This document shows positions 1,211 to 58,825 of a DNA stretch of 64,000 nucleotides, piece by piece (position 1 is the first letter of the stretch; every line of letters begins with the position of its first letter). The stretch is from a virus, in the IMG/VR virus record IMGVR_UViG_3300024239_000132, positions 9,250 to 73,249 of that record; one strand, 5' to 3'. Both the position numbers and the translations under genes were made by a program. Below the pieces are notes generated by a model that saw only the letters and a list, made by a program, of their open reading frames with translations, was not told where the DNA came from and did not search any database.

Positions 1211-1223
1211 GCTGAGCAACGAG

Positions 1224-1258
1224 AACTGGGAGAGCATTTGGCTCTCCCAGTTTTTCTT
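1224..1258 (+). terminator. Intrinsic terminator after capsid gene
   Basis: AACTGGGAGAGC-ATTTG-GCTCTCCCAGTT followed by T-rich tail. Confidence 0.85.
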
Positions 1259-1280
1259 CCCCTGAATTTAGGAATTTTCC

Positions 1281-1934
1281 GTGACTGACCAGACGAACCA
1301 GGACCAGGAACAGCAGACTGACGCCGCTGACGAGCTGGCCCTTCTCAAGGCCCGTGCTACCCAGATGGGCATCAGCTTCTCGAACAACATCAAGGTCGAG
1401 ACGCTTCGCACCAAGATCCAGGAAAAGCTGAACGCTGAGGATGCCGAGCTTGCCCAGGATACGGACGAAGACGAGCAGGATGGTCCTGCTGAATCTGTCC
1501 AGCCCAACGAAGCTCCCAAGGCTGCACGCAAGAAGACTCTGCGTGAGGAGCTTCTTGAATCGCAGATGAAGCTCGTGCGTTGCCGTATCTCGAATATGGA
1601 TCCGAAGAAGCGCGATCTTCCCGGCGAGATTTTCACGATCGCCAACGAGTACATCGGTACCGTTCGCAAGTTCGTGCCCTACGGTGAAGCCACCGATGAG
1701 GGTTATCACATTCCGTTTTGTATCTACACGGACCTCGAGAGCCGCCGCTTCCAGAACATTCGTGTGACCCGTGATCGTCGTACCGGTCAGACCAAGACCG
1801 AGACTTCGTTCGTCAAGGAGTTCGCCATCGAGATCCTGCCCGATCTGACGGCCGAAGAACTTGCTGCTCTGGCTCAGGCACAGCAGGCAGCCGGCAGCAT
1901 CGAGAGCGCCTCGAACACGGACTACATGGTCTGA
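1281..1934 (+). CDS. N4 gp55-like protein
   Basis: LKARATQMGISFSNNI and LVRCRISNMDPKKRDLPGEIFT motifs; synteny after capsid. Confidence 0.8.
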   Translation: MTDQTNQDQEQQTDAADELALLKARATQMGISFSNNIKVETLRTKIQEKLNAEDAELAQDTDEDEQDGPAESVQPNEAPKAARKKTLREELLESQMKLVRCRISNMDPKKRDLPGEIFTIANEYIGTVRKFVPYGEATDEGYHIPFCIYTDLESRRFQNIRVTRDRRTGQTKTETSFVKEFAIEILPDLTAEELAALAQAQQAAGSIESASNTDYMV

Positions 1935-1972
1935 TTTCAGACCTGATCTGAATTGATCCAAGGATACCATCA

Positions 1973-2638
1973 ATGACCATTATCGGTGACGACCTCGAAA
2001 TTCGTTTGAGCAACGATGCCCTTACCGAGAAGGTCGTTGATGGTGCCGGGATCTTTGACGTTCTCATGAGGAGCGTCTCGGTCCACCTCAGGGCCGAGTA
2101 TGATGCAAGCCGCATCACTGGAGCCGAGTACTCCAAGACTTATGCCGCCTTGGTAGAAGCGACACTGGCCAACTCGGTCCAGTTCCTCCTGGGGCGTGAC
2201 AAGACCTATTGGGAAGCCAAGGCTTCCCGCTATCAGGTCGAAACCCTGTTGCCTGCCCAGCTGGCTCAGATCACCACCGAAACTGCTCGTGCTTCTGTCG
2301 AAAAGGACAAGGCAACCTACGAGCTCACTTACATCCTTCCTGAGCAGAAGAAGATCGTTAGCGAACAGGCTGAAGCCCAACGAGCTCAGACACTCAATAC
2401 CCGCTTTGACGGCACAACTGTTGCAGGTGTCCTGGGTCAGCAGAAAGCCCTCTACACCCAGCAGATCACCTCGTATCAGCGTGATGCCGAGGTCAAGGCA
2501 GCCAAACTGTTTACTGATGCCTGGACCGTGCAGAAGACGATCGATGAAGGTTTGCTGGCTCCGACCAACTTCCAGAATGCTACGGTCGATACCGTGCTCA
2601 ATGCCATCAAGGCCAACAATGGATTGGCCACTACCTAA
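1973..2638 (+). CDS. N4 gp54-like virion protein
   Basis: GAGIFDVLM and QQKALYTQQITSYQRDAEVK motifs; synteny. Confidence 0.75.
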   Translation: MTIIGDDLEIRLSNDALTEKVVDGAGIFDVLMRSVSVHLRAEYDASRITGAEYSKTYAALVEATLANSVQFLLGRDKTYWEAKASRYQVETLLPAQLAQITTETARASVEKDKATYELTYILPEQKKIVSEQAEAQRAQTLNTRFDGTTVAGVLGQQKALYTQQITSYQRDAEVKAAKLFTDAWTVQKTIDEGLLAPTNFQNATVDTVLNAIKANNGLATT

Positions 2639-32423: not shown

Positions 32424-32759
32424 TCAGATGCCTCGGACGTTCTGGAGATGATCGTGCTGCTCTCTGAAGCAACGATAGGACCCGTTCCAGCGATGCCGGC
32501 CCACGATCCGGTAGATCTGTGTGGTAGGGTCCTGAGATTTTTTGCGACCATCGAGACGGATGTCGAAACCACATTCGTACTCAAGGCGTTGCATATACTT
32601 CAGGAGTGTCTGTTGGTCTGGGATAAGCTGCTGTTGAATGGCAACCGAGGCTGATAACCCACGGGGAGCCAGAGCAAGCAGAACTAGCCTTCTTGCTCTG
32701 GTTCCCTTAGGTGGACTGACGAATCCATATCTAACGATATAGTGCCGACGATCTCTCAT
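32424..32759 (-). CDS. Hypothetical protein
   Basis: ATGA overlap with thyX stop. Confidence 0.55.
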   Translation of the reverse strand: MRDRRHYIVRYGFVSPPKGTRARRLVLLALAPRGLSASVAIQQQLIPDQQTLLKYMQRLEYECGFDIRLDGRKKSQDPTTQIYRIVGRHRWNGSYRCFREQHDHLQNVRGI

Positions 32760-33664
32760 CCGGCGACGAACTCGTTAGGCAATTGCTTACGAAGCTGTCG
32801 CCAGCCTACGAGGTTGCCGTGCTCTTCAGGATACATCCAAGATGAATCTCCTCGTGGGTCTGAGGTAGACCAATCTGGTGTTGCCTGATGCTCGGCAGGG
32901 CTAGCATGGAGAGGCTGGCTGACGACGAGCTTCTCATAGAGAGCAATGTCCTCCTCGACAGTGGTCTGCCGGCCATCATGGGTCAGGTAGCTGACACGAG
33001 CACAACGAGCGACGGAGACCTTCTTAATGGGCTCTACCAGTTCATCATACATGGGCTCATCACGAGTGATGCGGCCCTTCTTGGCCAGATAACGAGCAGT
33101 GCTCCAATCTTCCTTGGTGATGTAGGGCAGATGCCACTCACCGGGTTGCAGGAAGTGGGGATCACTCTGAGCCATGGCAGCCATCATGGCTTCTGCCAAT
33201 ACCTTGATCTCCGGCTGTGCATCAGGGTGAGCACGAAGAGCGAAGAAGTTCGCCCATTCGGTTCCGGAACACACGACATTGATGTGTGCCCACGGCTCAA
33301 GAATGCGATTGGCAATTTGCTTGTGCAAGCCATTGCTGACCAACCATTCAGCCTTACTGATCATCTGTTCCATGGCGTCGAGCCAGATGGACTGGCAGAC
33401 GCCGATGGCTTCTGGATCAAGCTCTGCTCCGGCCTGCATACCAGGCTTATTGGAGCCCCAGTAAACTGGCATTGCTGGATCACGGCGAAGATCTGCGATC
33501 ATCCGTTCCACCGGTATTGCACGGGAGCTGGAAGCGTTTCGGCTGAAGACCCTATGGGTCATAAATTCCGAATGCACCATACGAGGATAGCGCAATTGAA
33601 ATGTGGTGAGGCGCTTTCCCTCAGGGGAAACGCTGTCTGCGATCACGATTGCTGAGATTGTCAT
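32756..33664 (-). CDS. thyX: Flavin-dependent thymidylate synthase
   Basis: EFMTHRVFSRNASSSRAIP and HASPAEHQA; likely start MTISA. Confidence 0.93.
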   Translation of the reverse strand: MTISAIVIADSVSPEGKRLTTFQLRYPRMVHSEFMTHRVFSRNASSSRAIPVERMIADLRRDPAMPVYWGSNKPGMQAGAELDPEAIGVCQSIWLDAMEQMISKAEWLVSNGLHKQIANRILEPWAHINVVCSGTEWANFFALRAHPDAQPEIKVLAEAMMAAMAQSDPHFLQPGEWHLPYITKEDWSTARYLAKKGRITRDEPMYDELVEPIKKVSVARCARVSYLTHDGRQTTVEEDIALYEKLVVSQPLHASPAEHQATPDWSTSDPRGDSSWMYPEEHGNLVGWRQLRKQLPNEFVAG

Positions 33665-33750
33665 GTCTGTTCCATACGAAGAGACCGGAGAGTCGCCTCC
33701 CCGGTCTGATATTTTCAAACAAATGTCTAGTCTGTTTGAGGTGAGCTCCC

Positions 33751-33767
33751 ACAATCTTTGAGATTGT
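33751..33767. promoter_or_regulatory. 17-bp palindrome, copy 1 (operator candidate)
   Basis: ACAATCT-TTG-AGATTGT, identical to 59152-59168. Confidence 0.5.
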
Positions 33768-33777
33768 CAGGCTTGAG

Positions 33778-34074
33778 CTACCACTTATATCCCAGACACT
33801 CGAACTCTGTCTCGCTGTATGGGCGATCACAGAGCACCCTGCCAACGTAATTTACCGTGGCAAAGCCTGGGACGATGTAGAGCTTTCCTTCACAGTCCAC
33901 GACTGTCCAGACATAGCGGGGATCAACGTCTGAACCGATCGTGCTGTGATCACGGATGATGGACCCGTCGGGTGCGGAGATAGGTTTGTAGCGTCTCTCG
34001 AAGACAAAATAGCCGCCGGCTCTGGACCGCTTGCGAATGCGGATAGGCGCCTTGATGACCTTAGGCTGCTGCAT
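33778..34074 (-). CDS. Hypothetical protein
   Basis: VWTVVD...YIVPGFATVN motif. Confidence 0.6.
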   Translation of the reverse strand: MQQPKVIKAPIRIRKRSRAGGYFVFERRYKPISAPDGSIIRDHSTIGSDVDPRYVWTVVDCEGKLYIVPGFATVNYVGRVLCDRPYSETEFECLGYKW

Positions 34075-34285
34075 TGCTCAGATCCTGATTCAGTTCATCA
34101 AAGCCACCGACCACCTTGAGAACCAAGGGAAGCGTCTGGCGTCCGATCGATGCAGGTAGGGCACCGAGCTCAGGCACATTCATGATGTTGTGCTCGGCAT
34201 AAGTCAGTCCCTTCTGGTTCAGAAGTTCCTTGGCCTTGTCGCAATAAGGACAGTTGTCCATAGTAACGATGATGTAGTCTTTCAC
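34061..34285 (-). CDS. Glutaredoxin
   Basis: CPYC active site, TLP cis-Pro motif, GGFDEL; GTG start with GGAG RBS. Confidence 0.88.
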   Translation of the reverse strand: MKDYIIVTMDNCPYCDKAKELLNQKGLTYAEHNIMNVPELGALPASIGRQTLPLVLKVVGGFDELNQDLSNAAA

Positions 34286-34365
34286 TCGTGAACTCCGTGA
34301 TAAGTCTGTGTGGAGAGATTTAAGCTTTATATGTAGGAAGTCTCCAAACTTCTGGAGATTCCCCC

Positions 34366-34638
34366 ATGTCAAGTGCAAAAGTCAGGGTAGCTGTTCCAGC
34401 TGTTTGGACTGATATCTCAGGTGCGGCTGCCAATGTGGCCGGTATGTCGTGGTATAACGACCCACGTTTCAGCTTCGGTCCAGTTGCTTTGGCATTTCAG
34501 GCCAGCAGTCCTGTCGCTGGTGATCCTTTTGTCACGCTTCAGCGTGGGGATTCCTGGTATGACAAGGCTGGGTCAGCAAAGATCTGGGCGATGAAGCTCA
34601 GCGATCAGCCTGTTCTTCTCACTGGCATGGCGGACTGA
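34366..34638 (+). CDS. Small beta-rich protein, probably structural
   Basis: 90 aa; co-oriented with the downstream spike gene, opposite to flanking middle genes. Confidence 0.6.
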   Translation: MSSAKVRVAVPAVWTDISGAAANVAGMSWYNDPRFSFGPVALAFQASSPVAGDPFVTLQRGDSWYDKAGSAKIWAMKLSDQPVLLTGMAD

Positions 34639-34643
34639 ACCAA

Positions 34644-37205
34644 ATGGGCCACTCTCGCACGCTCAATCGACCCGTGACAGGTGACGGTGGCCTGTTTTCA
34701 TATGGCTTTGCAGGCGCTCGTGGTAGAGTTGGAGGTGGTACTCCTACGCCTACCCCGACGCCTACGCCTACTCCCGATCCGTCATGGGCGATCGGACTAG
34801 CCCGCACACCCGCGTATGTGCCTTCTTGGACGCGACCAGCCTCGTTTATACAGGGGACGATCACTGGCAGCATTCCGGTCGATGCGATTGATTACGCAAC
34901 TGGAAATGGCGGCGGAGCATTCTCCGACCTGTTCGCATGGATCGATGCCTGCAACGCGGCCAACAAACCCGGCGCGCTCGGGCAGGACATCACGATCACC
35001 ACGACGGAAGCATCGCTTGGTCGGCGCTATCTCTATCGTGGCATTTACGGCTACGGAGCGGCAAATCCGAAGATCACATGGACAGGCCGCACGACCGGTT
35101 CGGGTTCGCAAAAGGCGCTGTTCCACGCCTATCTTGAAGACATCACCATTCGCGGCGTCGAGTTTGTGGATTGGGGTTGTGTTCTGGCCGTTGGTCAAAA
35201 GACGCTTCCACTGATCGAAACCGCCACCTTCACCGCTTCGTTCAGCGGCACGGCGATGACTGTTTCGTCGGGCAGCGTCAGCACTGGCATGAGCATTTAT
35301 GTTCCGGGATCGGTGCCTTACGGGACAACTGTTGTTAGTGGCTCAGCTCCGAATTGGGTCATCTCTGCCAACGTCGGCACGGTTGCGTCCACCACGGTAA
35401 ACGTTGTCGATCCACAGCCTTACCACACCAGCACGCAGCCACTTACCCGCATTGCCGATCCCGTTGTCGGTTCTGCTTCGGGCCTGCACTGCCCGCGCCT
35501 TGGCAAGATCGTCACATCGGGCACGTTCAATATCAGCCAGATCGCCATCAAGCGGCAGATCGAAGGCACTACCGCGATGGGGCAAGCCAGCGGCGGGGCA
35601 AACAACAACTATTATTTCAGCGATGCGGCATGGGCTGCGGTGCTTGAAACGGTCAATCTCTTCACCGGGGCGAGCTGCACAACGAATGCCCAGATTGTTT
35701 CGGCCATCAATGCCAACACTACGGCGGGCTTTGCGCACGGCTATGCAGCCGTCCTGTCCCTGTCTGGCGACGTGCTGATTACGGCAAACACGGTCAACAC
35801 CAAGTCGTTTGTCGATATGGTCATCACACAGACCGGCACGGCGGCGACGTTCGATGTCAAGACGCCAGCGGTCACGATCACGCATTGCACCTTTACAGAC
35901 TGCAACATGACCTACGCCGCCTTGCTCGATGTTTCGGAGCTTGGTGCGGTCGAGTTCCACAAGAACAGCCTGCCGGGTACTTGGTCCGCCATTTATGCGC
36001 AGGTCACGCGATGGGGGCATCTGCGCGCGGCAAACAACGAATGGTATGATTGCCTTCGGCTTCGCCATAGTCTGCGCCGTGCGCAAACTGGCCGAGGCCA
36101 TACTGCGGACAGTGGGGCAACCACTACCTACGCGGGAATGCCCGCTGGTTCCTCCCTATCGGAGTTCAACACTTTCATTTATGCGGGCACCGATAGCCCG
36201 CTGATGATGCGCTACATGACGGCCGGAACAACCTGCCTGATCGAAAACAACTATGCCCACGATGTCGAGAGCTACAACTCCACCAACACCGTGAACGCCG
36301 CTGTCTTTGCTGATATCCGCAACTGCTGGCAGCGCACGTCCAACGGCAAGGTCAACCGGATTGCCTACAACCGGATTGTCTCGGTCAAGGGCGTGCGCGG
36401 GGCCGAGGATGCCAACGCGTTCTATGCTAAGCCTCGCGGGCTCGATGTGATCGCGAACTATATCGAGGACGTTGGCGCGGCATATTACGGGCCTATCTCA
36501 CAAGATGGCTCCGAGTTCAGCAACGGGTTCAAGAACCCCGGCCCATGGAACCAGGAATACACCTCCACCTGGGGAACCAACGAAATCGGGGAGCCGTTCC
36601 GCTTCCTCGGCAACGAGCTTGTCAACATGCCTCCCGGCATCCCGCCCTTCAAGATCGATGAGGTTTACACCTCTGGCACGATCATCGAAGACAACATCAT
36701 TCGGAACTGGCGGAACTACAAGAATGGCGTCGAGCAAACGTCCGGATCTGTGGCGGGCGGCTTCCGTATCACGGATGGCCATCGCTTCGTATCGTTCAAG
36801 CGCAACCGCTTCATCAACTGCGATCCGGGACCGACCGATCCCGGCCTTTTGATAAATCTGCACAACATAAAAGAGGCCAACAACACGACCTTTACGACGG
36901 CTGATTTCCAGATCGACAACAACTCAATCCACAACGATGGCAGCGCTCATGCTGATGGCAGCTACCCGGTATATGGTGCGAACACGATTTTGGTCCGCTT
37001 TGACTTCGGATCAAACAACCCTGCGACGGGCTTTGCTGCCGGATTGGCAACTGGCTCCAATCGCATCTTGACGGCGTTGGGAGCAGACAGCGGCTATCGG
37101 TTTGTCATGAACCACACCGATCGCACAGAAACCAGTGTTGGGACTAACGCAGTGCCACAGGCGTCGGTGGTCAACTACCTGTCGAGCTATGGGGCTAATT
37201 TGTGA
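34644..37205 (+). CDS. Putative tail spike / depolymerase (beta-helix)
   Basis: 853 aa, Thr/Gly/Asn-rich; (TP)n linker; repeated IENN, IAYNRI, IANYI, FLGNEL, IEDNII and FKRNRF strands. Confidence 0.7.
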   Translation: MGHSRTLNRPVTGDGGLFSYGFAGARGRVGGGTPTPTPTPTPTPDPSWAIGLARTPAYVPSWTRPASFIQGTITGSIPVDAIDYATGNGGGAFSDLFAWIDACNAANKPGALGQDITITTTEASLGRRYLYRGIYGYGAANPKITWTGRTTGSGSQKALFHAYLEDITIRGVEFVDWGCVLAVGQKTLPLIETATFTASFSGTAMTVSSGSVSTGMSIYVPGSVPYGTTVVSGSAPNWVISANVGTVASTTVNVVDPQPYHTSTQPLTRIADPVVGSASGLHCPRLGKIVTSGTFNISQIAIKRQIEGTTAMGQASGGANNNYYFSDAAWAAVLETVNLFTGASCTTNAQIVSAINANTTAGFAHGYAAVLSLSGDVLITANTVNTKSFVDMVITQTGTAATFDVKTPAVTITHCTFTDCNMTYAALLDVSELGAVEFHKNSLPGTWSAIYAQVTRWGHLRAANNEWYDCLRLRHSLRRAQTGRGHTADSGATTTYAGMPAGSSLSEFNTFIYAGTDSPLMMRYMTAGTTCLIENNYAHDVESYNSTNTVNAAVFADIRNCWQRTSNGKVNRIAYNRIVSVKGVRGAEDANAFYAKPRGLDVIANYIEDVGAAYYGPISQDGSEFSNGFKNPGPWNQEYTSTWGTNEIGEPFRFLGNELVNMPPGIPPFKIDEVYTSGTIIEDNIIRNWRNYKNGVEQTSGSVAGGFRITDGHRFVSFKRNRFINCDPGPTDPGLLINLHNIKEANNTTFTTADFQIDNNSIHNDGSAHADGSYPVYGANTILVRFDFGSNNPATGFAAGLATGSNRILTALGADSGYRFVMNHTDRTETSVGTNAVPQASVVNYLSSYGANL
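34739..34775 (+). repeat. Thr-Pro linker repeat
   Basis: ACNCCN repeated six times, encoding TPTPTPTPTPTP. Confidence 0.85.
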
Positions 37206-37324
37206 GAGAGTTTATCCTCTTGATTGGCCCTTTGGTGCTGGCTTGGATCAGTGGCTACCTCTTTGGCTTCCATGAGGCTAAGAGGAAGATCACTGGCATT
37301 ATAGTGAGGCATTTTCGCTTGTAA
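37202..37324 (+). CDS. Small membrane peptide (40 aa)
   Basis: GTGA overlap with spike stop; MREFILLIGPLVLAWISGYLFGFHEAKRK... Confidence 0.4.
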   Translation: MREFILLIGPLVLAWISGYLFGFHEAKRKITGIIVRHFRL

Positions 37325-37389
37325 CGGCCAAGGATAGCGCGGGCGGCAATCGTTGAGAGGCCGTTCCCGCGCAAATCTGGTGAACGAGG

Positions 37390-37520
37390 TGGTGTAGCTG
37401 CGGGCCGGATTGTTTACCGGCTCAGTTTACTAAGCAGTTGCGCACTGCTGTTCTCGTCTCGTCGCGCACCCTCTTTTTTCGGAGGGGTCCTTGCCGTGTG
37501 TCCATCCACACCGCCGCAGC
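37390..37520 (-). ncRNA. tRNA-like RNA with acceptor, D and T arms but an expanded anticodon region
   Basis: GCTGCGG/CCGCAGC 7-bp stem; GTGT-GGATGG-ACAC; GCCGG-TAAACAAT-CCGGC; 3' TACACCA. Confidence 0.6.
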
Positions 37521-37747
37521 CCGCACACTCTATCACATTCCAGCGCTATGTGAATCCCTGAAACGACTAAGGGCGGCGCGACCGGGAACCCCCAATCCTT
37601 CGCCGCCCTCGAATGCTCGCACTACGCATGGCAGCCGAGACTAAGCCCGAATATCGTTGCTGCGGCCCCCGGCTCTTGATCCACGCATAAAGCGCTGCCA
37701 CCCGTCGGCAACCCAGAGTTGTTCCGGCGCTTGCCGCAGCCCATCCC

Positions 37748-38137
37748 CTATACCACAGGCGGGGGTGAAGGGGAATCCCCTGTTTCGAGTGCGGCCAGTT
37801 CTGACAATGCCTGCGACCTTGCAACACGTCGCGCCTCTGCCTGCTCCGCCATTGCTGGTGAATAGAACGGGTCTGCACTTTCCGGCACTTGGCCCATCGG
37901 ACGGCGGATTGCGTCATGCAGGGCAATCGTGATGGCCTTCACCCGCCCCTCTGCCTCTGCAAGCGAGGTTTCGAGGGCCTGGATGCGGGCGGCGGCGCGA
38001 TTGATCCGAACGCTGGCAAGGCTGAATTGAGCGTCGTCTTGACCATTGGTGGCTTTGACGGTGCGAAGGAACTCTGCGCTTTCCCTGAGGGCCACCAGAT
38101 CATCCATCACCGTTCTCCCTAGCCTTGCGGCAGGCAC
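37748..38137 (-). CDS. Hypothetical phage protein (foreign block)
   Basis: Coiled-coil RAAARIQALE; LHDAIRRPMGQVP; true start probably at MDDLV. Confidence 0.6.
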   Translation of the reverse strand: MPAARLGRTVMDDLVALRESAEFLRTVKATNGQDDAQFSLASVRINRAAARIQALETSLAEAEGRVKAITIALHDAIRRPMGQVPESADPFYSPAMAEQAEARRVARSQALSELAALETGDSPSPPPVV

Positions 38138-38243
38138 TGAAGCCGTCGCGGTGTCCCTGCCAGTAGCCTTTGCTGAAACCGATTATTGCGCCGGTGATCA
38201 AGGGCAATCCAAATAGAGCTGCAATGCCGAGGAGGTCGCTCAT
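38100..38243 (-). CDS. Small membrane protein
   Basis: MSDLLGIAALFGLPLITGAIIGFSKGYWQG; ATGA overlap. Confidence 0.55.
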   Translation of the reverse strand: MSDLLGIAALFGLPLITGAIIGFSKGYWQGHRDGFSACRKARENGDG

Positions 38244-38608
38244 TGCTTCCCCCTTACCGCGTCCAAGGCGGCGATTGCTGCGGTGGCTTGGTCCCATGCT
38301 AGCGCAACGTGCGGATTGTCCCGACGCTCAATTGCCCAATCCCTCACAAAGCAAGCGCCGTTCATCACCATGATAGCCCGCGCCACCGCCTCCACCTCAT
38401 CCTCGCTCGGCTGCGCGCGTGGGCATCCGTGTTCCGCGCAATAGCCACAGTCGCTGGATGATGGGCACGTCTCACTCGGCACAGCATGGATAAGCTGGCC
38501 GGTGCGGTAGGCATCGAATAGCGCGTTCACGAAAGCCGCGTATTCCTCAGGCCCCTGCGTTGCCTTCTTGCTCAACGCCTCAAGCGCTTCTGGTGTTATC
38601 TCAGTCAT
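38240..38608 (-). CDS. Hypothetical phage protein
   Basis: EDEVEAVARAI...ATAAIAAL module typical of temperate-phage accessory genes. Confidence 0.6.
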   Translation of the reverse strand: MTEITPEALEALSKKATQGPEEYAAFVNALFDAYRTGQLIHAVPSETCPSSSDCGYCAEHGCPRAQPSEDEVEAVARAIMVMNGACFVRDWAIERRDNPHVALAWDQATAAIAALDAVRGKQ

Positions 38609-39068
38609 GGGTGGCCTCGGGTTTGTAGGCGATGATCTGGTCGCACTCAGGCACTCTATTATCCCAAATCAGGGATGCGGCAGTCCCGAGTTGGCTCCGG
38701 TCGATCACGCCATCTCGCATCATGTAGATCGGCCTGCTGTCTAGCGGTACCGGACACGGCCCGCCATCATGCTCGATCCACCCTTCCGCCTTCATCGCTT
38801 CATTGAGCATCGGGGTCTCCTTGAGGGATTGGCGTGCGAAGTAACAGGCCCTGCACTTTTCGACACACCATCCGTGTCGGGTTTCAATCCCCTTCAGCGC
38901 CTCCCGCAGCTTCCGCTCCCGTTCCTCGAAAGCGCGTTGGATCAGGACTGCGGCATGGCCACAGCCGTAGTTTCCGAGAACAATCGTGCTGGCGAGGCTA
39001 AATGCCCAATCCGGCGCTCCTTCGATGTCGGCTTCGGTCACCGCCCACTGTTCCGGTTCAGTCTGCAT
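38601..39068 (-). CDS. Hypothetical phage protein
   Basis: C-terminal WIEHDGGPCPV...W...IIAYK module; start at MQTE inferred. Confidence 0.6.
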   Translation of the reverse strand: MQTEPEQWAVTEADIEGAPDWAFSLASTIVLGNYGCGHAAVLIQRAFEERERKLREALKGIETRHGWCVEKCRACYFARQSLKETPMLNEAMKAEGWIEHDGGPCPVPLDSRPIYMMRDGVIDRSQLGTAASLIWDNRVPECDQIIAYKPEATHD

Positions 39069-39291
39069 GGCTGCTTCCTTCAACAATAGAGCGGACCTGC
39101 ATTCCAATGGCGGTTGCCCATGAGGGGATCATTGAGGATGTTGCCAAGCCCTTCTTGTGCAATCCCGGCAACGCGCGCCATAAATTGCCGTGATACGGGA
39201 AGCTAAGTTCTCCGCTGATCGTCTTCTGTGCTGCTAGCATCATCTGCTTCTGCGCAGGCGTCAGTCCCGCCGCTATCTCTTCCGCAGTCAT
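39058..39291 (-). CDS. Hypothetical protein
   Basis: MTAEEIAAGLTPAQK; overlapping starts and stops. Confidence 0.55.
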   Translation of the reverse strand: MTAEEIAAGLTPAQKQMMLAAQKTISGELSFPYHGNLWRALPGLHKKGLATSSMIPSWATAIGMQVRSIVEGSSHAD

Positions 39292-39563
39292 GGATACGGC
39301 CTCCCCCAAGGATTGACTGTCGCGCGCAAACCGCAAGTGCATGGCGCATGGTCAAGTGGATCTAGGTCATTCGCCTTGCAGGTGACGGAGTGCTCAGGAT
39401 CATCGAACATGGCAGGCGGGGCTGTCTCCGGAATACTGCCGTCGCTTAAGCGGCAATCAGGCTCGTCGTCCCGCATCCACCACTTGCCAGAGGGGCCGTA
39501 TCCACCATTCCACATATCGCGTTCAAAGTCGGTCATTCCGCGCATTTCACCAAAGCCGCTCAT
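39288..39563 (-). CDS. Hypothetical protein
   Basis: MSGFGEM; H...C...CTCG motif. Confidence 0.5.
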   Translation of the reverse strand: MSGFGEMRGMTDFERDMWNGGYGPSGKWWMRDDEPDCRLSDGSIPETAPPAMFDDPEHSVTCKANDLDPLDHAPCTCGLRATVNPWGRPYP

Positions 39564-40303
39564 TATCCTGCCTCCGGTGGTGTGGTTGGCCGCCATGCGG
39601 TCGGTTGCAGGCTCATGGCCTCATTTTCATTTGAGGCCCAGCAAGCTCCACCAGACCAGCACGGCGGATGTTCGCCGTCGATCTCTGCCTGCCATTGGTC
39701 GCAAGTCTCATCGAGCGAGGACATCGAGGCATCGGGCAAAAGGCGAGCAAGGAAGGTCATGCTTCCGACCTTGACCTCAACCGGCGTGTCATACGGAGCC
39801 GTCTCTATCGGCCTCCAAGCCTCGGCAGGTGGTGCGGGGAGGGTGGTGCGCCGCACGTCTGTGAGGATAGCACCGCCATTGATAAGGCGCAGAAGCTCAT
39901 CGACGCTTTCGATTGTCTTGGTCTGGCGGCGAATACCTACAGTCGCGGTGAATGCAGTTGCCACCGGTGGTGTGGGGAGGGCGTAGAGGGGCATTGTCGC
40001 CATGCCCGATGGACGGGAATGCAGCACAATTCCGTTCGCTTCGAACTCGCTCTTGCGGTTCAACATCTCCGGAATGATGTAGCCCACCACCTCCCCGCGC
40101 TCGGCAGACTGGCGGTGACGGGCGAAGGCTTGGACAAGATAGTGATCGTCATACTTTCCCGCCCGCACCTCACCGATAAAGAGGGCTGGTTCCTCATCCT
40201 TTCTCACATAGAGGTGGCACAGTATTGGAAGCGCCGCATCGCGATCCGCCTGAGTGACCGTCACTTCCGCTTCCCGCGCCTCTTGGCTTACTGTGGTGGT
40301 CAT
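39563..40303 (-). CDS. Mosaic hypothetical protein (DUF551-like C-terminus)
   Basis: VTQADRDAA...QAFARHR module followed by WRPIETAP...PTAWRP. Confidence 0.65.
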   Translation of the reverse strand: MTTTVSQEAREAEVTVTQADRDAALPILCHLYVRKDEEPALFIGEVRAGKYDDHYLVQAFARHRQSAERGEVVGYIIPEMLNRKSEFEANGIVLHSRPSGMATMPLYALPTPPVATAFTATVGIRRQTKTIESVDELLRLINGGAILTDVRRTTLPAPPAEAWRPIETAPYDTPVEVKVGSMTFLARLLPDASMSSLDETCDQWQAEIDGEHPPCWSGGACWASNENEAMSLQPTAWRPTTPPEAG

Positions 40304-40500
40304 CGGGTGGGTTCCTTGGGTTCACAACGCCAATACGTGGTGGTGGTCACTTCCATGGCGAATATCTTGTCGCATGCCTCGCAGGCGTATTCGATCAGGT
40401 CTTCATTGTAGAAGAAGCCCCCATCGTGCTGATGGACGTGGCCGCAGTATGGACATTCCGGCGCGGCATCACTGAGCGTAGTTCCACAGGTCTTATCCAC
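40300..40500 (-). CDS. Zinc-ribbon protein
   Basis: CPYC...CEAC. Confidence 0.6.
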   Translation of the reverse strand: MDKTCGTTLSDAAPECPYCGHVHQHDGGFFYNEDLIEYACEACDKIFAMEVTTTTYWRCEPKEPTR

Positions 40501-40798
40501 GGCTTGGTTCCTTGGGTTGGTGGGCCGCGACGATCTCCTTCACCACGTCCACAATGATTGCGTCCTGCTCGGTGTTGATACCGCAGGGCATTCTGCTGGT
40601 TGCCTTGCAGACAGGGCACTTGCCTGGGGAAAAGGTGTGATCCCTGCGGATCGGGCACTTCAGAAGCGCTGCCTTGCGGGCATTCAGTGCCTCAGCGAGT
40701 TGGCTGACGGTCTTATCCACGGCCTGCCTCCTCAATAGCATCGGCAGCTTCAATCTCGGTGTGGTGCAGTGACTGGACGACGCACTTGCAACCACCAT
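40493..40798 (-). CDS. Hypothetical Cys-rich protein (true start probably downstream, at VDKTV)
   Basis: KCP...H...CPVC...PC. Confidence 0.45.
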   Translation of the reverse strand: MVVASASSSHCTTPRLKLPMLLRRQAVDKTVSQLAEALNARKAALLKCPIRRDHTFSPGKCPVCKATSRMPCGINTEQDAIIVDVVKEIVAAHQPKEPSRG

Positions 40799-40898
40799 CG
40801 ACGCGCTTGCTTGGATCTATCGCGATGACGGCAAATCTTTCTCCGTTGACGCCCTTATAGGCTTCATCAAGAGTGGCTATTGCGAGGTAAGGCTTCAT
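40713..40898 (-). CDS. Hypothetical protein
   Basis: ATGA overlap; ends EAGRG like its neighbours. Confidence 0.55.
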   Translation of the reverse strand: MKPYLAIATLDEAYKGVNGERFAVIAIDPSKRVDGGCKCVVQSLHHTEIEAADAIEEAGRG

Positions 40899-41095
40899 CG
40901 GCCTGCCTCCGGTCCATACAGCGGGTCTGGTTCGCTACCGTCTTCCGCAATCCAATGTTCTGCGCTGCGGTCTCCATCATCACAGAGATTGCACTTGTCG
41001 TGCTCAATGCGGGCGACCCAATCGGGCACGTCGGGGAAACTGGAGCGCTGAAACTCAACAGACCGTTTACACTTGCGGCAATGTAGGGAGATCAT
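40895..41095 (-). CDS. Zinc-binding hypothetical protein
   Basis: CRKC...CNLC; ATGA overlap. Confidence 0.55.
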   Translation of the reverse strand: MISLHCRKCKRSVEFQRSSFPDVPDWVARIEHDKCNLCDDGDRSAEHWIAEDGSEPDPLYGPEAGR

Positions 41096-41466
41096 CGGCC
41101 TGCCTCCTTGAGTGCTGCGAGAAGGTCGCGGGCGCGTTCAAAGTCCTCGTATGAGAACCAGTCCTGCACCCTGTCGCGGTAGATCATTTCCCAGACGGCT
41201 TGCGTGTCTTTCGGGTCATCCTCGCCGACGAACGCAAACGCCTCCAGCGCCTCAACAAGCCGGTGATGGCTGTTCACTGCATGGACGATGAAGGCGGCGT
41301 TGGCTTCGACACGCGAGTATTCACCGGCGTCAATTTCGGTCGGCCAAGGCAGTGCTGCGCAAACAAGCCCGCCAAGGTTACTGCCAACAATATACACGCC
41401 GGGGTCATTTTCGGTTTCCAGCACCTGCGCTTCCCAAGGCAAAGGCGTATGTGCAGTCTCAGTCAT
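41092..41466 (-). CDS. Hypothetical phage protein (HTPxPW family)
   Basis: MTETAHTPLPW...EANAAFIVHAVNSHHRLVEALE. Confidence 0.65.
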   Translation of the reverse strand: MTETAHTPLPWEAQVLETENDPGVYIVGSNLGGLVCAALPWPTEIDAGEYSRVEANAAFIVHAVNSHHRLVEALEAFAFVGEDDPKDTQAVWEMIYRDRVQDWFSYEDFERARDLLAALKEAGR

Positions 41467-41809
41467 GGCGGGCATCCCCAAAGCAAATCTCACCGGCCCG
41501 TGAAATGTCCTTGCCGCAGACCTTGCATCGCAGCGTGTGCAGTTCGCCGTTGCGGGCTTTGATCTCGGGCGGGCAGTCTGGATCACCCGGCCCCCACGAG
41601 ACGTGCTTGCGGCTGATGGCGCGGTCAAAGGCTTCCGCGATCTGCACAGCCAGCCATGCAATGCGCGGTTCCTCGGTGTTGCTTTCCAGCCAAAGCGCGA
41701 TGTGGCCCGCGTTGGTGATGTCGAGTTCGGCACAGTAGCGCTCGACTGCATTGCTTGCCTTTTCCATCGCCTCGGGGGTGAATGGTGATTGCTTCTGGTT
41801 CTCACTCAT
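41459..41809 (-). CDS. Hypothetical protein
   Basis: 116 aa; NGE...RCKVCG; ATGA overlap. Confidence 0.6.
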   Translation of the reverse strand: MSENQKQSPFTPEAMEKASNAVERYCAELDITNAGHIALWLESNTEEPRIAWLAVQIAEAFDRAISRKHVSWGPGDPDCPPEIKARNGELHTLRCKVCGKDISRAGEICFGDARHD

Positions 41810-41952
41810 TTCGCTTCACTCCAATGCGGCACACCCCGCCCCGCCAGCGTGAATTGATCCATCATCTTGTTCCATTGAATCCTGGCCCAGATCGCTAGTC
41901 CAACCAGACAAAGAAAGACGAACGTGGCAGGAATCATTATGACAAAGAGCAT
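41806..41952 (-). CDS. Small membrane protein
   Basis: MLFVIMIPATFVFLCLVGLAIWARIQW; RBS AAGGGA. Confidence 0.5.
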   Translation of the reverse strand: MLFVIMIPATFVFLCLVGLAIWARIQWNKMMDQFTLAGRGVPHWSEAK

Positions 41953-42003
41953 GCTGTGTTCCCTTTCTGGTTCGCAGCTAGCGGAGCCGGGTGTAATTGC
42001 CAA

Positions 42004-42234
42004 TCCATACAAAGCCCATACAGTAGCTTTTTAAGATGAGCATTTTATCACATAAATTTAGTATCTTAGTGGAATTCGCCTTGTCCCTTCACACGGGTGG
42101 GGTCACAGGTTCAATCCCTGTCGCGCCCACCACTTAAACCCCTGAAATTACTAGGTTTTAAGTGGCTTGGTTGACCGAACCAAGAAAGCCAAAATACGGC
42201 AAAACACGTCAAATTTCATACAAATCCATACAAA
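42004..42234 (+). repeat. Integrase arm-type direct repeats flanking the att core
   Basis: TCCATACAAA 42004, CCCATACAG 42015, TTCATACAAA 42215, TCCATACAAA 42225. Confidence 0.7.
42085..42132 (+). mobile_element. attP core: 3' part of tRNA-Val(CAC)
   Basis: CCC-TTCACAC-GGGTG-GGGTC-ACAGG-TTCAATC-CCTGT-CGCGCCC-A-CCA; anticodon loop through CCA present, 5' half absent; 0.8 kb from an integrase. Confidence 0.88.
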
Positions 42235-42324
42235 ACGCATGCAGAGCCCAGACGGTGCAGCAGATAACTTCAGCACTAGGCGTTGCATGATTCGTTTGGC
42301 ATAAGCCTCTCACACTTATGAGGA

Positions 42325-42651
42325 ATGCTTATGCGGACGATGATTGTGTTGGGTCTGAGCCTGGCTTTGGGAGCATGCTCTTCGACAATGACCCAGGAAC
42401 AGGCCATGGCTCGATACGGTACTACTGATCCTGCTACGATCGCTGCGATTCAGCAGAGGAATTACAACCAGACCATGAACAATCTGACTGCCATGAACAG
42501 CCAGATGCAACAGAACGTAGCCACGGGATGGGTTACCTTGAGCCAAGGGCAACAGCCCCCAGCTGTAGGCAATTACCAGTACCAGGGATCCGATGGATCA
42601 TGGATCTACTGTGTTCGTGTAAGCGCCAGTGTCGTTAACTGCCGCCAATGA
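42325..42651 (+). CDS. Lipoprotein (moron / exclusion candidate)
   Basis: Signal peptide with lipobox LGAC; RBS GAGGA; opposite strand to neighbours. Confidence 0.75.
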   Translation: MLMRTMIVLGLSLALGACSSTMTQEQAMARYGTTDPATIAAIQQRNYNQTMNNLTAMNSQMQQNVATGWVTLSQGQQPPAVGNYQYQGSDGSWIYCVRVSASVVNCRQ

Positions 42652-42870
42652 GTTGTGGGCAATCTCAGGATAGAGGGCGTCCGACCAGGGTTTCCCGGAA
42701 GCAACCCAACCAGCATAGAAAGCTGGGAGGTCAGCTTCCGGGAGAGATGCTTCCAAGGCTGCATTCTCATAGGTTCCCGCGGTGAACAGAAGACCTGTCA
42801 CCTCCAGCTCTGGATGGGCAACAGCAACTTCATCGAAGTCTTCGAGTAGGATGCTTTTAAGGGATTGCAT
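42598..42870 (-). CDS. Hypothetical protein
   Basis: RBS GGAG; 90 aa downstream of integrase. Confidence 0.5.
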   Translation of the reverse strand: MQSLKSILLEDFDEVAVAHPELEVTGLLFTAGTYENAALEASLPEADLPAFYAGWVASGKPWSDALYPEIAHNSLAAVNDTGAYTNTVDP

Positions 42871-42917
42871 GGCAAGGCTCCGTGAAAATTTACACGTTGA
42901 GTCTTGCTACCCTCAAG

Positions 42918-44024
42918 TCAAGCCTTCCTCAGTTTGATCTTGGTCTTGGCCTCGGCTCTAGCAATGCCTGCGAGCTGGGCTTCATGGACCTTGTTGGCGA
43001 TCTCTTCTGCGTGGGTGTAGGTACGCTTCATCAAATTGACGTCAGCCCACCCACCAAAGGCAGCAGCTGCCTTCTCGTCGATAGAGTGCCTGACGTTCAG
43101 TTCCTGACCGAAGCCATGTCTGCCGGCGGCATGGAACGGGATGAATTCTATCTTGGCTTTCTCGATAGCCTTGTTCCAAGCCTTGCGAGGAGAAGATCTT
43201 TCGGCATAGCCGAATAGGCGCCGGTTACGATCGGTATGTTCCCAGCCTCTGGGATAGAGTTCAGGTGGCAGCTCTCTGAGTTCGGCCGCCAGCCATTCAG
43301 GGATATCGAGCCAGCGATCTCCCATTCCCTTGGCTCCAGGAATGCACAGCCTTGATCCGGCAGAATCGAAATGGCTGGGGTGCATTTCCATAGCCTGAGA
43401 AATTCGAGCACCGGTAGCGAACATGGTCAGAGCCAGAGCTCTCACTCTTGGTTCGGCATGCTCGCAGAATTGGAGGATCCATTCCCATGAGCCAGGAGGA
43501 TAATGCTTTCGGCCAGATGAGCCTCGTCTCTTGTCCTGCCTGGTTCGCTCCTGACGATCATAGCCCTTGATTTTAATGGGGGCACATTTGCCCAGATCAT
43601 GGGCATTGTTGATGACAGATCGGACAGGAGTCAGAACCTGACGGGTCCATGTGACGGTACCAGCATCAGGGTAGATTTCTCGAGCGAGTTCTCTCACCAT
43701 TTTGGGGGTGATCTCGATCAGAGGCTTTTCACCCCATTCCTCGAGTATCGGTATAAGATAGCCGGCAGTCTTGGCATTGGCCTCGTACAGCAGACAGGCT
43801 TCGGCAAAGGTGAATGCCTTTTCCTCTTCCTTGTCTGCTGTTTCAGGACCAAGCAGAAAGCGTCGGACTATCCTTGCTTCTTCCTGCCTGCACCACTCCC
43901 ACGCACCTTGCTCTGATAGAGCTCCAGTGCTTTTCTGGTAGTAGTCTGAGATGGGCCGGCCTTCGTGCGTGACTCGACCTTTGGCCCACCATTTGGTGCC
44001 TCTGAGGTACGGTTCGAGCGGCAC
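42918..44024 (-). CDS. int: Tyrosine recombinase / integrase
   Basis: Catalytic set R (TGARISQ), K (GAKG), H..R (FHAAGRH), W (GGW), Y (RTYTH); N-terminal arm-binding-like beta domain. Confidence 0.92.
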   Translation of the reverse strand: MPLEPYLRGTKWWAKGRVTHEGRPISDYYQKSTGALSEQGAWEWCRQEEARIVRRFLLGPETADKEEEKAFTFAEACLLYEANAKTAGYLIPILEEWGEKPLIEITPKMVRELAREIYPDAGTVTWTRQVLTPVRSVINNAHDLGKCAPIKIKGYDRQERTRQDKRRGSSGRKHYPPGSWEWILQFCEHAEPRVRALALTMFATGARISQAMEMHPSHFDSAGSRLCIPGAKGMGDRWLDIPEWLAAELRELPPELYPRGWEHTDRNRRLFGYAERSSPRKAWNKAIEKAKIEFIPFHAAGRHGFGQELNVRHSIDEKAAAAFGGWADVNLMKRTYTHAEEIANKVHEAQLAGIARAEAKTKIKLRKA

Positions 44025-44263
44025 TTCTCACCTTCCTTGAGTATCAGTTCCATGTGACCCACGGTGATCAGCATGGTTCGTCCGAGCTTTATCCGAGCAC
44101 CGAGCTTGTTGGCCTTCTCTCTGAGACTCCGTTCAGAGATGGTAATGCCCTTCTCGGCCAGCAACTCCACCCATTCGGATGGTTGCTTTCCGTGTTCGAT
44201 GACATGGGGAACAGACGGGTTCAAGGGAATGAAAGAGCGACCGATGAAGTCATGCACAGCCAT
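43868..44263 (-). CDS. Excisionase-like winged-helix protein overlapping int
   Basis: PSEWVELL...ISERSLREKANKLGARIKLGRTMLIT; 3' end overlaps int 5' end by 157 nt. Confidence 0.65.
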   Translation of the reverse strand: MAVHDFIGRSFIPLNPSVPHVIEHGKQPSEWVELLAEKGITISERSLREKANKLGARIKLGRTMLITVGHMELILKEGEKCRSNRTSEAPNGGPKVESRTKAGPSQTTTRKALELYQSKVRGSGAGRKKQG

Positions 44264-44274
44264 GGGTCAGCCTT

Positions 44275-44793
44275 TCACTCAAAGATCGATGCCACCGGCT
44301 CGTCAGCTTGGTTGGCGTACTTGCCAGTGTAAGCAGCTGGATGAGCGATCTGGTGGAATATCACTTGTGCGATTCCCGAACCAGCAGGGACGTGAATGAG
44401 TTCCGGCCCATTGAAGGTCAGTTCCAGGGTCAAGTGGCCCGACCATCCCGGTTCAAGGTTGGTAGTCCTACTGGCGTCGAGACCTACCCTCGCCCAGGTG
44501 GATTTGTTGAGCACATGGCCCATCAGGTCATTGGGAAGGTCGAAGCATTCTAGAGATGATGCCAGAACGAATGAACCGTAGGTTCTCGGACCATCATCTA
44601 CACGATACATCGGTGGTCGATGCATTTCCCCGCTGAAGTGATACAGTGGGGGGTAGAATGTGACGCTCTGCTTGATCCGAATATCGTAGCCACATTCCGT
44701 CAGGCCATGGCTAACGCCATTATGTTTGACCTTGCGAGCGAGCATGTCCTTGATCGGAGCTGCCTTGAGCAAGCTGGGTCCGTTGATGACCAT
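44275..44793 (-). CDS. dcd: dCTP deaminase
   Basis: GYDIRI, KSTWARVG, EPGWSGHLTLEL, IAQVIF, YTGKY. Confidence 0.9.
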   Translation of the reverse strand: MVINGPSLLKAAPIKDMLARKVKHNGVSHGLTECGYDIRIKQSVTFYPPLYHFSGEMHRPPMYRVDDGPRTYGSFVLASSLECFDLPNDLMGHVLNKSTWARVGLDASRTTNLEPGWSGHLTLELTFNGPELIHVPAGSGIAQVIFHQIAHPAAYTGKYANQADEPVASIFE

Positions 44794-55162: not shown

Positions 55163-55582
55163 TTACGCTGCGAGCTTGAAGCTCTGGACTCGGCCGAGCT
55201 TCTTGTCAGCCCAGTCAAGACGTTGACGATAGTTCATGCCTGCAAGCATTAGCAGGACATTGGCATGATCAGTGCTGTGACACAGCAAGTTCATGCCTTG
55301 GAGGTGATCGATCTCTTCGAGAATCGTATCTGTGTGTGCGAGCAGGATCTCATAGCGTTCCAGGCACTCTTCAGGTGTGCCATCTACGCCAGCTCGAAAT
55401 GGGTTTGCCCAGACCGATCCCTGGTCAACATATACGGTATTGGCCGGCAGGATACTTGAGGGAATATCCTTGCTATTCAGCACCTTACCCGTCCGCGGTG
55501 CTTGGCCCGTCGTCGACTGCATTTCACTCGTTCCTTGAATCATTGTTGTCTTTCCAAGGGGCAAGAGCCCCAGGAAAAACAA
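55163..55582 (-). CDS. DUF4326-like protein (start probably at MQSTT)
   Basis: VYV..GSVWANPF...DGT...LQGMNLLC...HANVL. Confidence 0.7.
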   Translation of the reverse strand: MFFLGLLPLGKTTMIQGTSEMQSTTGQAPRTGKVLNSKDIPSSILPANTVYVDQGSVWANPFRAGVDGTPEECLERYEILLAHTDTILEEIDHLQGMNLLCHSTDHANVLLMLAGMNYRQRLDWADKKLGRVQSFKLAA

Positions 55583-57043: not shown

Positions 57044-57400
57044 TCAGTAGTTGAATATCCACACAGGCTTGTTCAGCTTCTGCATGGTCTCGATCATGTG
57101 CTTGGTGCCCTTGGACTGACCGTCCCAGAAGGCTATGAGAGCGTCAGCAACAGCTGCCATTTCAGCATTGCGACGGTAGCCGGCTGAGCGGCCATAACGG
57201 CCCCAGTCAGCAGGCATTTCGATCGTTGGCCACTGGTTCCAGGACCAGATTTCATAGGCCGTAAGATCAGCACCACGAGCCATACCGCAGATGAGCGTTG
57301 GAGCTTCCTTGAGCTCACTAAGCTCAGTGATTGAGCTGATGCCTTGATACATGAAGTTCAGGTCTGTGAAGTCACGGCCACCAGCAATGATGAGGTTCAT
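57044..57400 (-). CDS. SLOG-family (DUF2493/YspA-like) protein
   Basis: IIAGGRDF, GMARGAD, AGYRRNAEM, FWDGQSKGTKHMI. Confidence 0.85.
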   Translation of the reverse strand: MNLIIAGGRDFTDLNFMYQGISSITELSELKEAPTLICGMARGADLTAYEIWSWNQWPTIEMPADWGRYGRSAGYRRNAEMAAVADALIAFWDGQSKGTKHMIETMQKLNKPVWIFNY

Positions 57401-58321: not shown

Positions 58322-58825
58322 TTAGCCTACGATTACCCAGTCCCCTGCGAGGACATCTGTCTGAGATGCGAGCCAAGGAACTACGTTATCTTGAGCAGAC
58401 TTCATGGCGATGTAAGCTCCATAGGGAACTAGACCATCCTCATGCTTGGCTGCAATTGCATGACCTGCTGGAGTCGTCGGGGGGTAACGGTTCTCTGGAA
58501 CCAGGTAGAGATACATCCCCTTACCGTTCCAGCCTTGACGAGCTACGCGCATACCCTTCTTGAGCATACCCAGTGCATCACTGAAATTCAGGCTAGTGCT
58601 GGAGAATGGTTCGTAAGCTCGATCGAAGACATCCTTAGGTGACCAGCTGATATAGCCTGCATGATCGGGATGATTGGATTTACCTCCGTCAGTGTACTCG
58701 ACGAGGTAGCCCTCATCCTCACCGTTCTCGTCAGCAGGCAGAGTCCATCCTCGGTAGTTATTGTAGCTCAGCCGATCCATTGGCGTAGCCCGAACCAACT
58801 TGGTCCCTAGATACAGTGCAGTCAC
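58322..58825 (-). CDS. DUF2829 (Tad2-like) domain fusion protein
   Basis: N-terminal YLGTK...GYLVEY...SWSPKDVF; C-terminal FSDAL...VARQGWNGKGM...PWLASQTDVLAGDW. Confidence 0.8.
   Translation of the reverse strand: MTALYLGTKLVRATPMDRLSYNNYRGWTLPADENGEDEGYLVEYTDGGKSNHPDHAGYISWSPKDVFDRAYEPFSSTSLNFSDALGMLKKGMRVARQGWNGKGMYLYLVPENRYPPTTPAGHAIAAKHEDGLVPYGAYIAMKSAQDNVVPWLASQTDVLAGDWVIVG

Follow-up and report, generated by a model that had tools for sequence, protein, structure and literature searches.

A predicted integration module directed at tRNA-Val(CAC) in an N4-like phage of sphingomonads

The genome of an N4-like phage, analysed here as a 64,000-nt window (bases 9250-73249 of the 73,249-bp virus record IMGVR_UViG_3300024239_000132; all coordinates are positions in this window), carries a tyrosine integrase gene (int), a small winged-helix gene that overlaps it and a phage attachment site (attP) whose core is identical to the 3' part of bacterial tRNA-Val(CAC) genes. 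We read these parts as a functional integration module aimed at the tRNA-Val(CAC) gene of a Novosphingobium-like host, with a probability of roughly 0.8. The parts themselves, their conservation, the identity of attP with its bacterial counterpart (attB) and the insertion junction of one relative were all observed.

Results

An N4-like genome in its unintegrated form

The record is a complete N4-like phage genome in its unintegrated form, with termini that overlap by about 131 bp. Its assignment to this group, proposed in the original prediction, was confirmed by several marker genes. An open reading frame (ORF) of 3452 amino acids (7627-17985) matches the virion RNA polymerase profile phrog_2206 over profile positions 21-3405 of 3406, the major capsid protein (ORF 20-1210) is of the N4-gp56 type (phrog_1357, PF25209), and the window also encodes an N4-type RNA polymerase II subunit (RNAPII, phrog_2051) and an N4 gp49-family protein. 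The genome size of 73,249 bp, together with the capsid, RNAPII and the giant virion polymerase, places the phage among the N4-like phages (Schitoviridae). Genes for a primase, a DNA polymerase and a Dda-like helicase are present in the window as well. The parts of the proposed integration module are as follows.

42002..42023, plus strand: candidate arm-type sites of the P arm, two CATACA(A/G) units 11 nt apart
42085..42132, plus strand: attP core, 48 nt, equal to the 3' part of tRNA-Val(CAC)
42130..42165, plus strand: hairpin starting in the CCA end of the tRNA piece, CCACTTAAACCC / GGTTTTAAGTGG
42215..42244, plus strand: candidate arm-type sites of the P' arm, tandem CATACAA, CATACAA and CATGCAG with a spacing of about 10 nt
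42918..44024, minus strand: tyrosine integrase, 368 amino acids (Pfam and PHROG matches, invariant catalytic residues, AlphaFold model)
43868..44263, minus strand: small winged-helix gene, candidate excisionase (directionality factor), 131 amino acids (winged helix-turn-helix model, synteny with int)

Four related loci serve for comparison. L124, a viral contig of 39.7 kb, shares 92-97% identity with the window and has the site uninterrupted; L146 is a 3-kb contig with an integrase 76% identical to that of the window; L131 is the stretch of 17.1 kb at the start of a Novosphingobium-like metagenome contig (427,367 bp) and contains an inserted relative, and L130 is a second record of the same 2,280 bp at 100% identity.

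The attachment site

The core covers 3 bp of the anticodon stem, the anticodon loop, the variable loop, the T arm, the 3' strand of the acceptor and the CCA end. It is a fragment of a tRNA gene, since ARAGORN found a whole tRNA gene neither in the window nor in the complete genome. All 48 nucleotides are identical in at least 120 bacterial stretches, 82 of 120 belonging to the Sphingomonadales by name and the remainder being mostly unclassified or from other Alphaproteobacteria; thus the comparison with bacterial tRNA genes that had been suggested as a way of predicting the host points to exact tRNA-Val(CAC) genes, mostly of Sphingomonadales, and the predicted 48-bp tRNA-Val(CAC) fragment ending in CCA was verified by alignment to bacterial genes. 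The host is probably a member of the Sphingomonadales close to Novosphingobium. In an alignment with the L131/L130 junction, identity with bacterial tRNA-Val genes ends at both edges of the core. Many other loci have an identical core on the downstream side of a relative of this integrase, and a match that is both exact and recurrent at this place is more than chance. A search of 41900-42400 against Rfam at relaxed thresholds gave chance-level rows only, with no row for a truncated tRNA.

The core is flanked by a 22-nt direct repeat (42002-42023 and 42223-42244, 86% identical). Within and around it, CATACA(A/G) units lie at 42006, 42017, 42217 and 42227, and CATACAAA occurs three times in the 64-kb window, in each case within 42006-42234. 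The left-arm units lie 104 and 93 nt ahead of the T-loop motif in the window, in L124 and in L146, and the tandem right-arm units are kept in L124, in L146 and in the integrated L131 (CATACAA, CATTCAA). A scan of viral contigs for the arm motifs returned the contig of L124 only. Judged by position and conservation, these repeats are candidate binding sites of the integrase.

The hairpin begins in the CCA end of the core. Its two arms (42130-42141 and 42154-42165) are 92% complementary, and the 61-nt fold has a free energy of -18.3 kcal/mol and a z-score of -3.2; 2 of 200 shuffled sequences folded as well. A compensatory change preserves the corresponding hairpin in L131 (z -3.4), and an equivalent hairpin that likewise uses the CCA end (z -4.2) is present at a native tRNA-Val locus of Novosphingobium (L064). 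This fits the earlier suggestion that a hairpin after the CCA could supply the 3' structure of the restored tRNA, and the hairpin may serve as a 3' processing or termination signal of the rebuilt tRNA. A scan of 41700-44500 for promoters and terminators gave counts at or under the expectation from shuffled sequence. Taken as a whole, attP looks functional rather than like debris.

The integrase and the overlapping winged-helix gene

The integrase scores 43.1 bits against Pfam Phage_integrase (PF00589; cut-off 27.1) over residues 183-340 and matches phrog_1, annotated as integrase, at 2.4e-22. The R-K-H-R-W-Y set of a tyrosine recombinase, which had been read from the sequence, holds up in an alignment of 25 homologues: R207, K232, H298, R302, W326 and Y336 are unchanging, and a profile built from these homologues aligns them with the catalytic motifs of the archaeal recombinase XerA (4a8e). 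That profile was needed for the XerA match, as phmmer with the integrase found zero matches among PDB sequences. The spacing from H298 to R302 is one residue longer than in the usual HxxR.

The AlphaFold model of the integrase has an overall predicted local distance difference test score (pLDDT) of 80 and shows an N-terminal sheet plus helix (residues 1-58), a helical core-binding domain and a catalytic domain. Strands 4-8, 11-16 and 29-32 and helix 38-58 of the N-terminal domain are modelled with a pLDDT of about 90; residues 303-340, with W326 and Y336, are poorly modelled (pLDDT < 50). A Foldseek search of the PDB gave 40 matches at E <= 0.001, with XerA, Tn1549 Int and full-length lambda Int at the top (E 6e-6 to 2e-5), and full-length lambda Int (1z1b) aligns with the model over the whole length (376-387 columns). 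The model suggests that the N-terminal domain is of the arm-binding type found in heterobivalent integrases of the lambda kind. The ratio of nonsynonymous to synonymous substitution rates (dN/dS) for int is 0.04 against L124, that is, between two N4-like genomes, and 0.095 against L131. Database relatives of the integrase numbered 466 at E <= 0.001 among 8000 candidates scored, and those with names come from Novosphingobium, Croceicoccus, Erythrobacter, Sphingobium and metagenome-assembled genomes of Sphingomonadales.

The helper gene, as we call the small winged-helix gene, overlaps the start of int by 157 nt. In its AlphaFold model, residues 21-80 (pLDDT 78-91) form a helix-helix-beta hairpin-helix arrangement, a winged helix-turn-helix, so that the overlapping small winged-helix gene of the original prediction was recovered in both overlap and fold. 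Of 35 related loci, 30 have a homologue of the helper immediately upstream of int, as do 32 of a further 34, and the loci that lack a match mostly start at or within int. The two genes co-occur down to 43% identity. Within the overlap, dN/dS is 0.17 in the int frame and 1.07 in the tail of the helper; selection there acts on the int frame and not on the helper tail, and therefore the winged helix is the functional part of the helper. Its position and predicted fold make the helper most likely an excisionase.

An inserted relative

The integrase of L131 is 79% identical to that of the window. It is preceded by genes for an ATPase (59% amino acid identity), a DUF2201 protein (49%), a 139-amino-acid protein (47%), a dCTP deaminase (54%) and the helper (54%), in the same order and orientation as in the window, and the genes adjoining int are all open. 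The best phage matches of the L131 ATPase are genomes of 70-77 kb, including isolates named N4-like in the literature. Downstream of the L131 integrase, about 190 bp homologous to the right arm of the window are followed by a complete tRNA-Val(CAC) whose 3' end points toward int. Bacterial sequence makes up the 5' half of this tRNA and continues past it into genes for an isochorismatase, a NUDIX protein, an HD-domain protein and a 6-phosphogluconolactonase. This flank is 74-78% identical to DNA within 8-kb stretches around Novosphingobium tRNA-Val genes and therefore comes from the same chromosomal neighbourhood. The junction is the one expected from recombination between attP and tRNA-Val, seen in a relative of this phage, and L131 and L130 both have the tRNA rebuilt where the inserted copy meets bacterial DNA on the int side. 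Of the two junctions whose detection had been proposed as a check, the int-proximal one was thus recovered in a relative; the far one would lie beyond the start of the contig.

Two further observations concern L131. Between its DUF2201 gene and its homologue of the 139-amino-acid gene lies a 165-amino-acid MarR/winged-helix gene (4069-4566, plus strand), a candidate regulator; by the ORF list the window has no ORF of similar size at this place, and a direct homologue search was not made. Homologues of the N4-type ATPase that are 56% identical to that of L131 (proteins P0356 and P0297) are recorded on a 153-kb contig of a Mesorhizobium-labelled metagenome-assembled genome and on a 233-kb contig, which possibly carry further inserted N4-like elements in other Alphaproteobacteria.

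Free relatives and a second tRNA target

L124 carries different DNA further left of the site. In L146 the site adjoins a homologue of the thyX gene of the window (32756-33754), and its core differs from that of the window (28 of 48 positions identical):

L146 1124-1170, minus strand: attP core, a 3' piece of tRNA-Thr(GGT), identified by alignment to sphingomonad tRNA genes

This core is 92-96% identical to the 3' part of tRNA-Thr(GGT) in four sphingomonad genomes. The arms of L146 are 63% and 61% identical to those of the window and have their CATACA(A/G) units at unchanged distances. A tRNA-Thr(GGT) core between the same arms means that sister integrases would be aimed at two tRNA genes, and of the two more novel readings considered here the better-supported is that integrases 74-79% identical in N4-like phages were retargeted from tRNA-Val(CAC) to tRNA-Thr(GGT) with the arm distances kept.

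Integrase relatives (72-74%) and capsid relatives are also recorded on contigs of matching length (72,862 and 71,199 bp). Parts of 41300-43000 occur in twenty sequencing runs, one of which (X1) may be the source of the genome. Among the Logan contigs of X1, a 73,148-bp contig crosses the site uninterrupted; Logan pieces of runs X2-X4 break inside the core, and their loose ends are other tRNA genes. Such contigs and unitigs fit the free and the inserted form alike. An apparent joint of 42132 to 43585 in run X4 was disregarded as a junction, one side being only 28 nt.

The integration module is located at the edge of a variable block. The block covers about 8 kb to the left of attP (about 33800-42000); L124 has other DNA in its place, and L146 lacks it, with attP next to thyX. 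The G+C content of the block is 0.56-0.59 over 34001-42000, compared with about 0.50-0.55 from 42001 and 0.52-0.57 over most of the remaining window. One of its plus-strand genes encodes an 853-amino-acid protein that has a TP-repeat linker and matches no family; on the minus strand is a series of small genes almost without family matches. A DUF3800-VII RNA (37655-37739, minus strand; 54.2 bits against a gathering threshold of 36.2), the only Rfam family above threshold in the window, sits within the block, and genes for a ThyX-type thymidylate synthase and a glutaredoxin (32756-34378, minus strand) adjoin it.

Distribution of the module

Among the 35 related loci, a complete tRNA-Val(CAC) adjoins int in 23, isolate genomes included, and N4-like neighbours were found in only four (L124, L130, L131 and L146). 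The 40 IMG/VR loci with this integrase family were all examined, and only the contig of L124 was N4-like; the others are on contigs of 5-48 kb, mostly 30-48 kb, with int typically at one end. Among 376 Novosphingobium genomes, 25 have an integrase relative at E <= 1e-50.

The same integrase family, at 43-66% identity, is found in 30-48-kb temperate elements of Sphingomonadales (L125-L129, L132-L144, L150-L158 and L168-L201). These elements have the same helper gene and often the same tRNA-Val(CAC) target in the same relative orientation, and are located at the ends of predicted proviruses or in bacterial chromosomes. They differ from the phage described here in that N4-like neighbours were present in none of 31 and none of 34 loci examined. 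The module occurs in many ordinary sphingomonad elements, and is therefore a common prophage module that N4-like phages also carry; it appears to have been captured by, or exchanged among, them.

The closest integrase in a bacterial genome (82%), which is the best of the Novosphingobium relatives, is encoded on a 68.5-kb contig (G661:C262) at a distance of 2.1 kb from a complete tRNA-Val(CAC). This contig was considered as N4-like and rejected: it is bacterial, carries a transfer-messenger RNA and has no N4-like genes. Around the integrase (G661:C262 1-7132, locus L159) are ADP-ribosylglycohydrolase-like and exonuclease-like genes and no helper homologue, and the locus may be a different or decayed element.

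Other features of the window

Two ORFs between int and attP, on opposite strands, and an N4-like backbone gene complete the region:

42325..42651, plus strand: accessory gene between attP and int, 108 amino acids, with a signal peptide and a lipobox-like LGAC
42598..42870, minus strand: 90-amino-acid ORF between int and attP, without a Pfam or PHROG match
44275..44793, minus strand: dCTP deaminase, N4-like backbone gene bordering the module (Pfam DCD 9e-17, phrog_1663 2.5e-46)

The 108-amino-acid protein is a candidate lipoprotein. Its gene is 97% identical in L124 and has zero matches in L131 and none in Pfam or PHROG; the 90-amino-acid ORF, similarly, is 92% identical in L124 and has zero matches in L131. 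The dCTP deaminase gene has an identical position relative to helper and int in L124 and L131.

Elsewhere in the window, the large terminase (61076-63655, plus strand) has 859 amino acids, far beyond the coverage of a single-piece PHROG match. Its match to phrog_38 falls into two parts, and residues 379-424 hold a LAGLIDADG_3 domain; together these suggest that the gene is interrupted by an intein or a homing-endonuclease insertion. A 167-amino-acid protein (58322-58825, minus strand) has a Tad2-like (Thoeris anti-defence 2) domain (8.1e-24), and a YspA/SLOG-family protein (57044-57400) and a DUF4326 protein (55163-55582) are encoded near it.

Discussion

We propose that the module would work in the following way. 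The linear genome would circularize before recombination. The N-terminal domain of the integrase would bind the CATACA(A/G) repeats of both arms, and its core-binding and catalytic domains would bind the 48-bp core. Recombination by the integrase would then take place between this core and its identical counterpart in the 3' part of the tRNA-Val(CAC) gene of the host, with the crossover most likely in the anticodon loop, flanked by the CCC/GGG stem. In the product, the tRNA would be rebuilt by the phage copy of the core and the phage hairpin that starts in the CCA end would take the place of the native downstream hairpin. The overlapping winged-helix gene, most likely the excisionase, would act in the reverse reaction. 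Whether all of this amounts to stable, inducible lysogeny is a separate matter, on which we see about even odds.

Several results weigh against a working module in a temperate N4-like phage. When bacterial genomes were queried with the N4-type capsid protein, 401 Sphingomonadales genomes gave only three matches, all weak (26-28% identity), and the 376 Novosphingobium genomes gave none; the closest 120 capsid clusters are all on contigs of 82 kb or less. No CI/Cro-type repressor or lysogeny regulator was found among the subset of ORFs scanned with Pfam; many small ORFs of the genome are without a family. The inserted relative is known from a sole junction. Because the bacterial contig begins 6 kb into the element, only part of an integrated N4-like genome of this lineage is in evidence; L130 is identical to L131, so the two records represent one lineage rather than two, and a backbone only 47-59% identical to that of the window makes L131 a distant relative. 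The integrase of G661:C262, located at tRNA-Val without helper or N4-like neighbours, indicates that the module is mobile and not diagnostic of N4-like phages. As for the helper, its sole Pfam listing at E <= 0.01 is a weak match to HTH_Tnp_Tc5 (7.6e-5), Foldseek found no PDB match to the model at E <= 0.001, and structure alignment (VIA-align) gave middling scores with MerR-type winged helix-turn-helix domains (Z 5.0-6.4). Scores with known excisionases were also middling (Z 5.0, root-mean-square deviation 2.6 and 51 aligned residues for Xis of mycobacteriophage Pukovnik; Z 5.0 for TorI). With fold scores of this order, the case for an excisionase is stronger from the position of the gene than from structure matches.

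The capsid counts, the phage-sized contigs of the nearest 120 capsid clusters, the lack of a repressor among the ORFs scanned and the mere 6 kb of element in L131 would all suit a phage that has an intact module and is lytic in practice, its integration being rare or abortive and copies of the L131 type being dead-end remnants that cannot be induced. We consider this quite improbable. Purifying selection on int between two N4-like genomes is strong (dN/dS 0.04), the genes beside int in L131 are all open, and arm sites and helper are kept in three N4-like lineages, one of them retargeted, which is hard to explain without regular use. The missing repressor would also fit a different account, in which an integration module without a CI-type switch suffices for temperance. 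As far as is known, N4 early promoters are read only by the polymerase that the virion injects, and an inserted N4-like genome would be silent by default once that polymerase has been diluted out. Repressor-free lysogeny of this kind seems to us unlikely.

The remaining alternatives question the junction or the role of the recombinase. A 48-bp repeat shared by phage and host may mislead assemblers that use short k-mers, in four runs the Logan unitigs end within the core, and L130, being the same as L131, is perhaps not independent of it; the junction could on these grounds be a chimeric metagenome assembly through the shared core, with no inserted relative in existence. We regard this as highly improbable, given that the identical join occurs in two separately named records, that ordinary short reads usually exceed 48 bp and would span the core, and that the 427-kb contig terminates within the element and not at the core. 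With integrase relatives at a complete tRNA-Val in the 23 loci described above, isolate genomes among them, integration by this clade of integrases is in any case not in doubt. That the recombinase instead serves phage DNA metabolism, for example the resolution of multimers, and that the tRNA-like piece is inert debris, is hardly credible. Tyrosine recombinases of the Xer type do resolve multimers, and the best PDB sequence match is an archaeal Xer; against this stand the three-domain build like that of lambda Int with its N-terminal domain of the arm-binding type, a core that is an exact 3' piece of a tRNA placed between arm repeats at conserved distances, and the presence of relatives at tRNA-Val in bacterial chromosomes. 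We therefore retain a functional integration module directed at tRNA-Val(CAC) as the best explanation. The original prediction of a temperate N4-like phage seen in its unintegrated form stands as far as the set of attP, int and helper in an unintegrated genome and the junction in a relative are concerned; its temperate lifestyle is the part that stays at even odds.

The module resembles that of lambda in its three-domain tyrosine integrase, in the arm motifs on either side of the core and in a small DNA-binding gene upstream of, and overlapping, int. The core of lambda is short, whereas here a tRNA 3' target shares 48 bp of identity. Lambda Int has a third catalytic histidine where the present integrase has a tryptophan, and its HxxR is one residue shorter than the H298...R302 stretch. 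Unlike lambda Xis, the helper has a winged helix-turn-helix of the MerR type in a reading frame of 131 amino acids.

Integrase-bearing N4-like genomes are already in print, as the original prediction had cautioned they might be. The available portions of a 2023 report in mSystems (PMC10654107) describe 54 N4-like genomes with an integrase, a transposase or a diversity-generating retroelement and N4-like proviral regions in 40 bacterial contigs, mainly of Moraxella, conclude that some N4-like viruses are lysogenic, and suggest that the integrases were gained from hosts or from other temperate phages. That set is like the present genome in having hallmark genes of lysogeny in N4-like phages. It differs in that its hosts are mainly Moraxella and Enterococcus faecium and that those portions leave the attachment site undefined, whereas here the host is a sphingomonad and both a tRNA-Val(CAC) attP and a junction were mapped. 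Our search of the accessible literature found no paper that defines the attachment site of an N4-like phage or describes a sphingomonad N4-like prophage. The T7-like phage LUZ100 and the integrating pelagiphages are likewise integrase-bearing members of a group regarded as strictly lytic, in a different phage family.

The phage described here is thus a well-mapped further case of a kind that has been published before. N4-like phages are widely held to be strictly lytic, on which basis isolates have been proposed for therapy and biocontrol. What the present work adds is a testable map, consisting of a 48-bp core, candidate arm sites, a tRNA-Val(CAC) target and an int-proximal junction in a bacterial chromosome. 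The sister cores for tRNA-Val and tRNA-Thr, set between the same arms, offer a natural pair for studying how an integrase changes its target. Ordinary prophages of sphingomonads have this module too, which points to genes moving between temperate phages and a family that is otherwise lytic.

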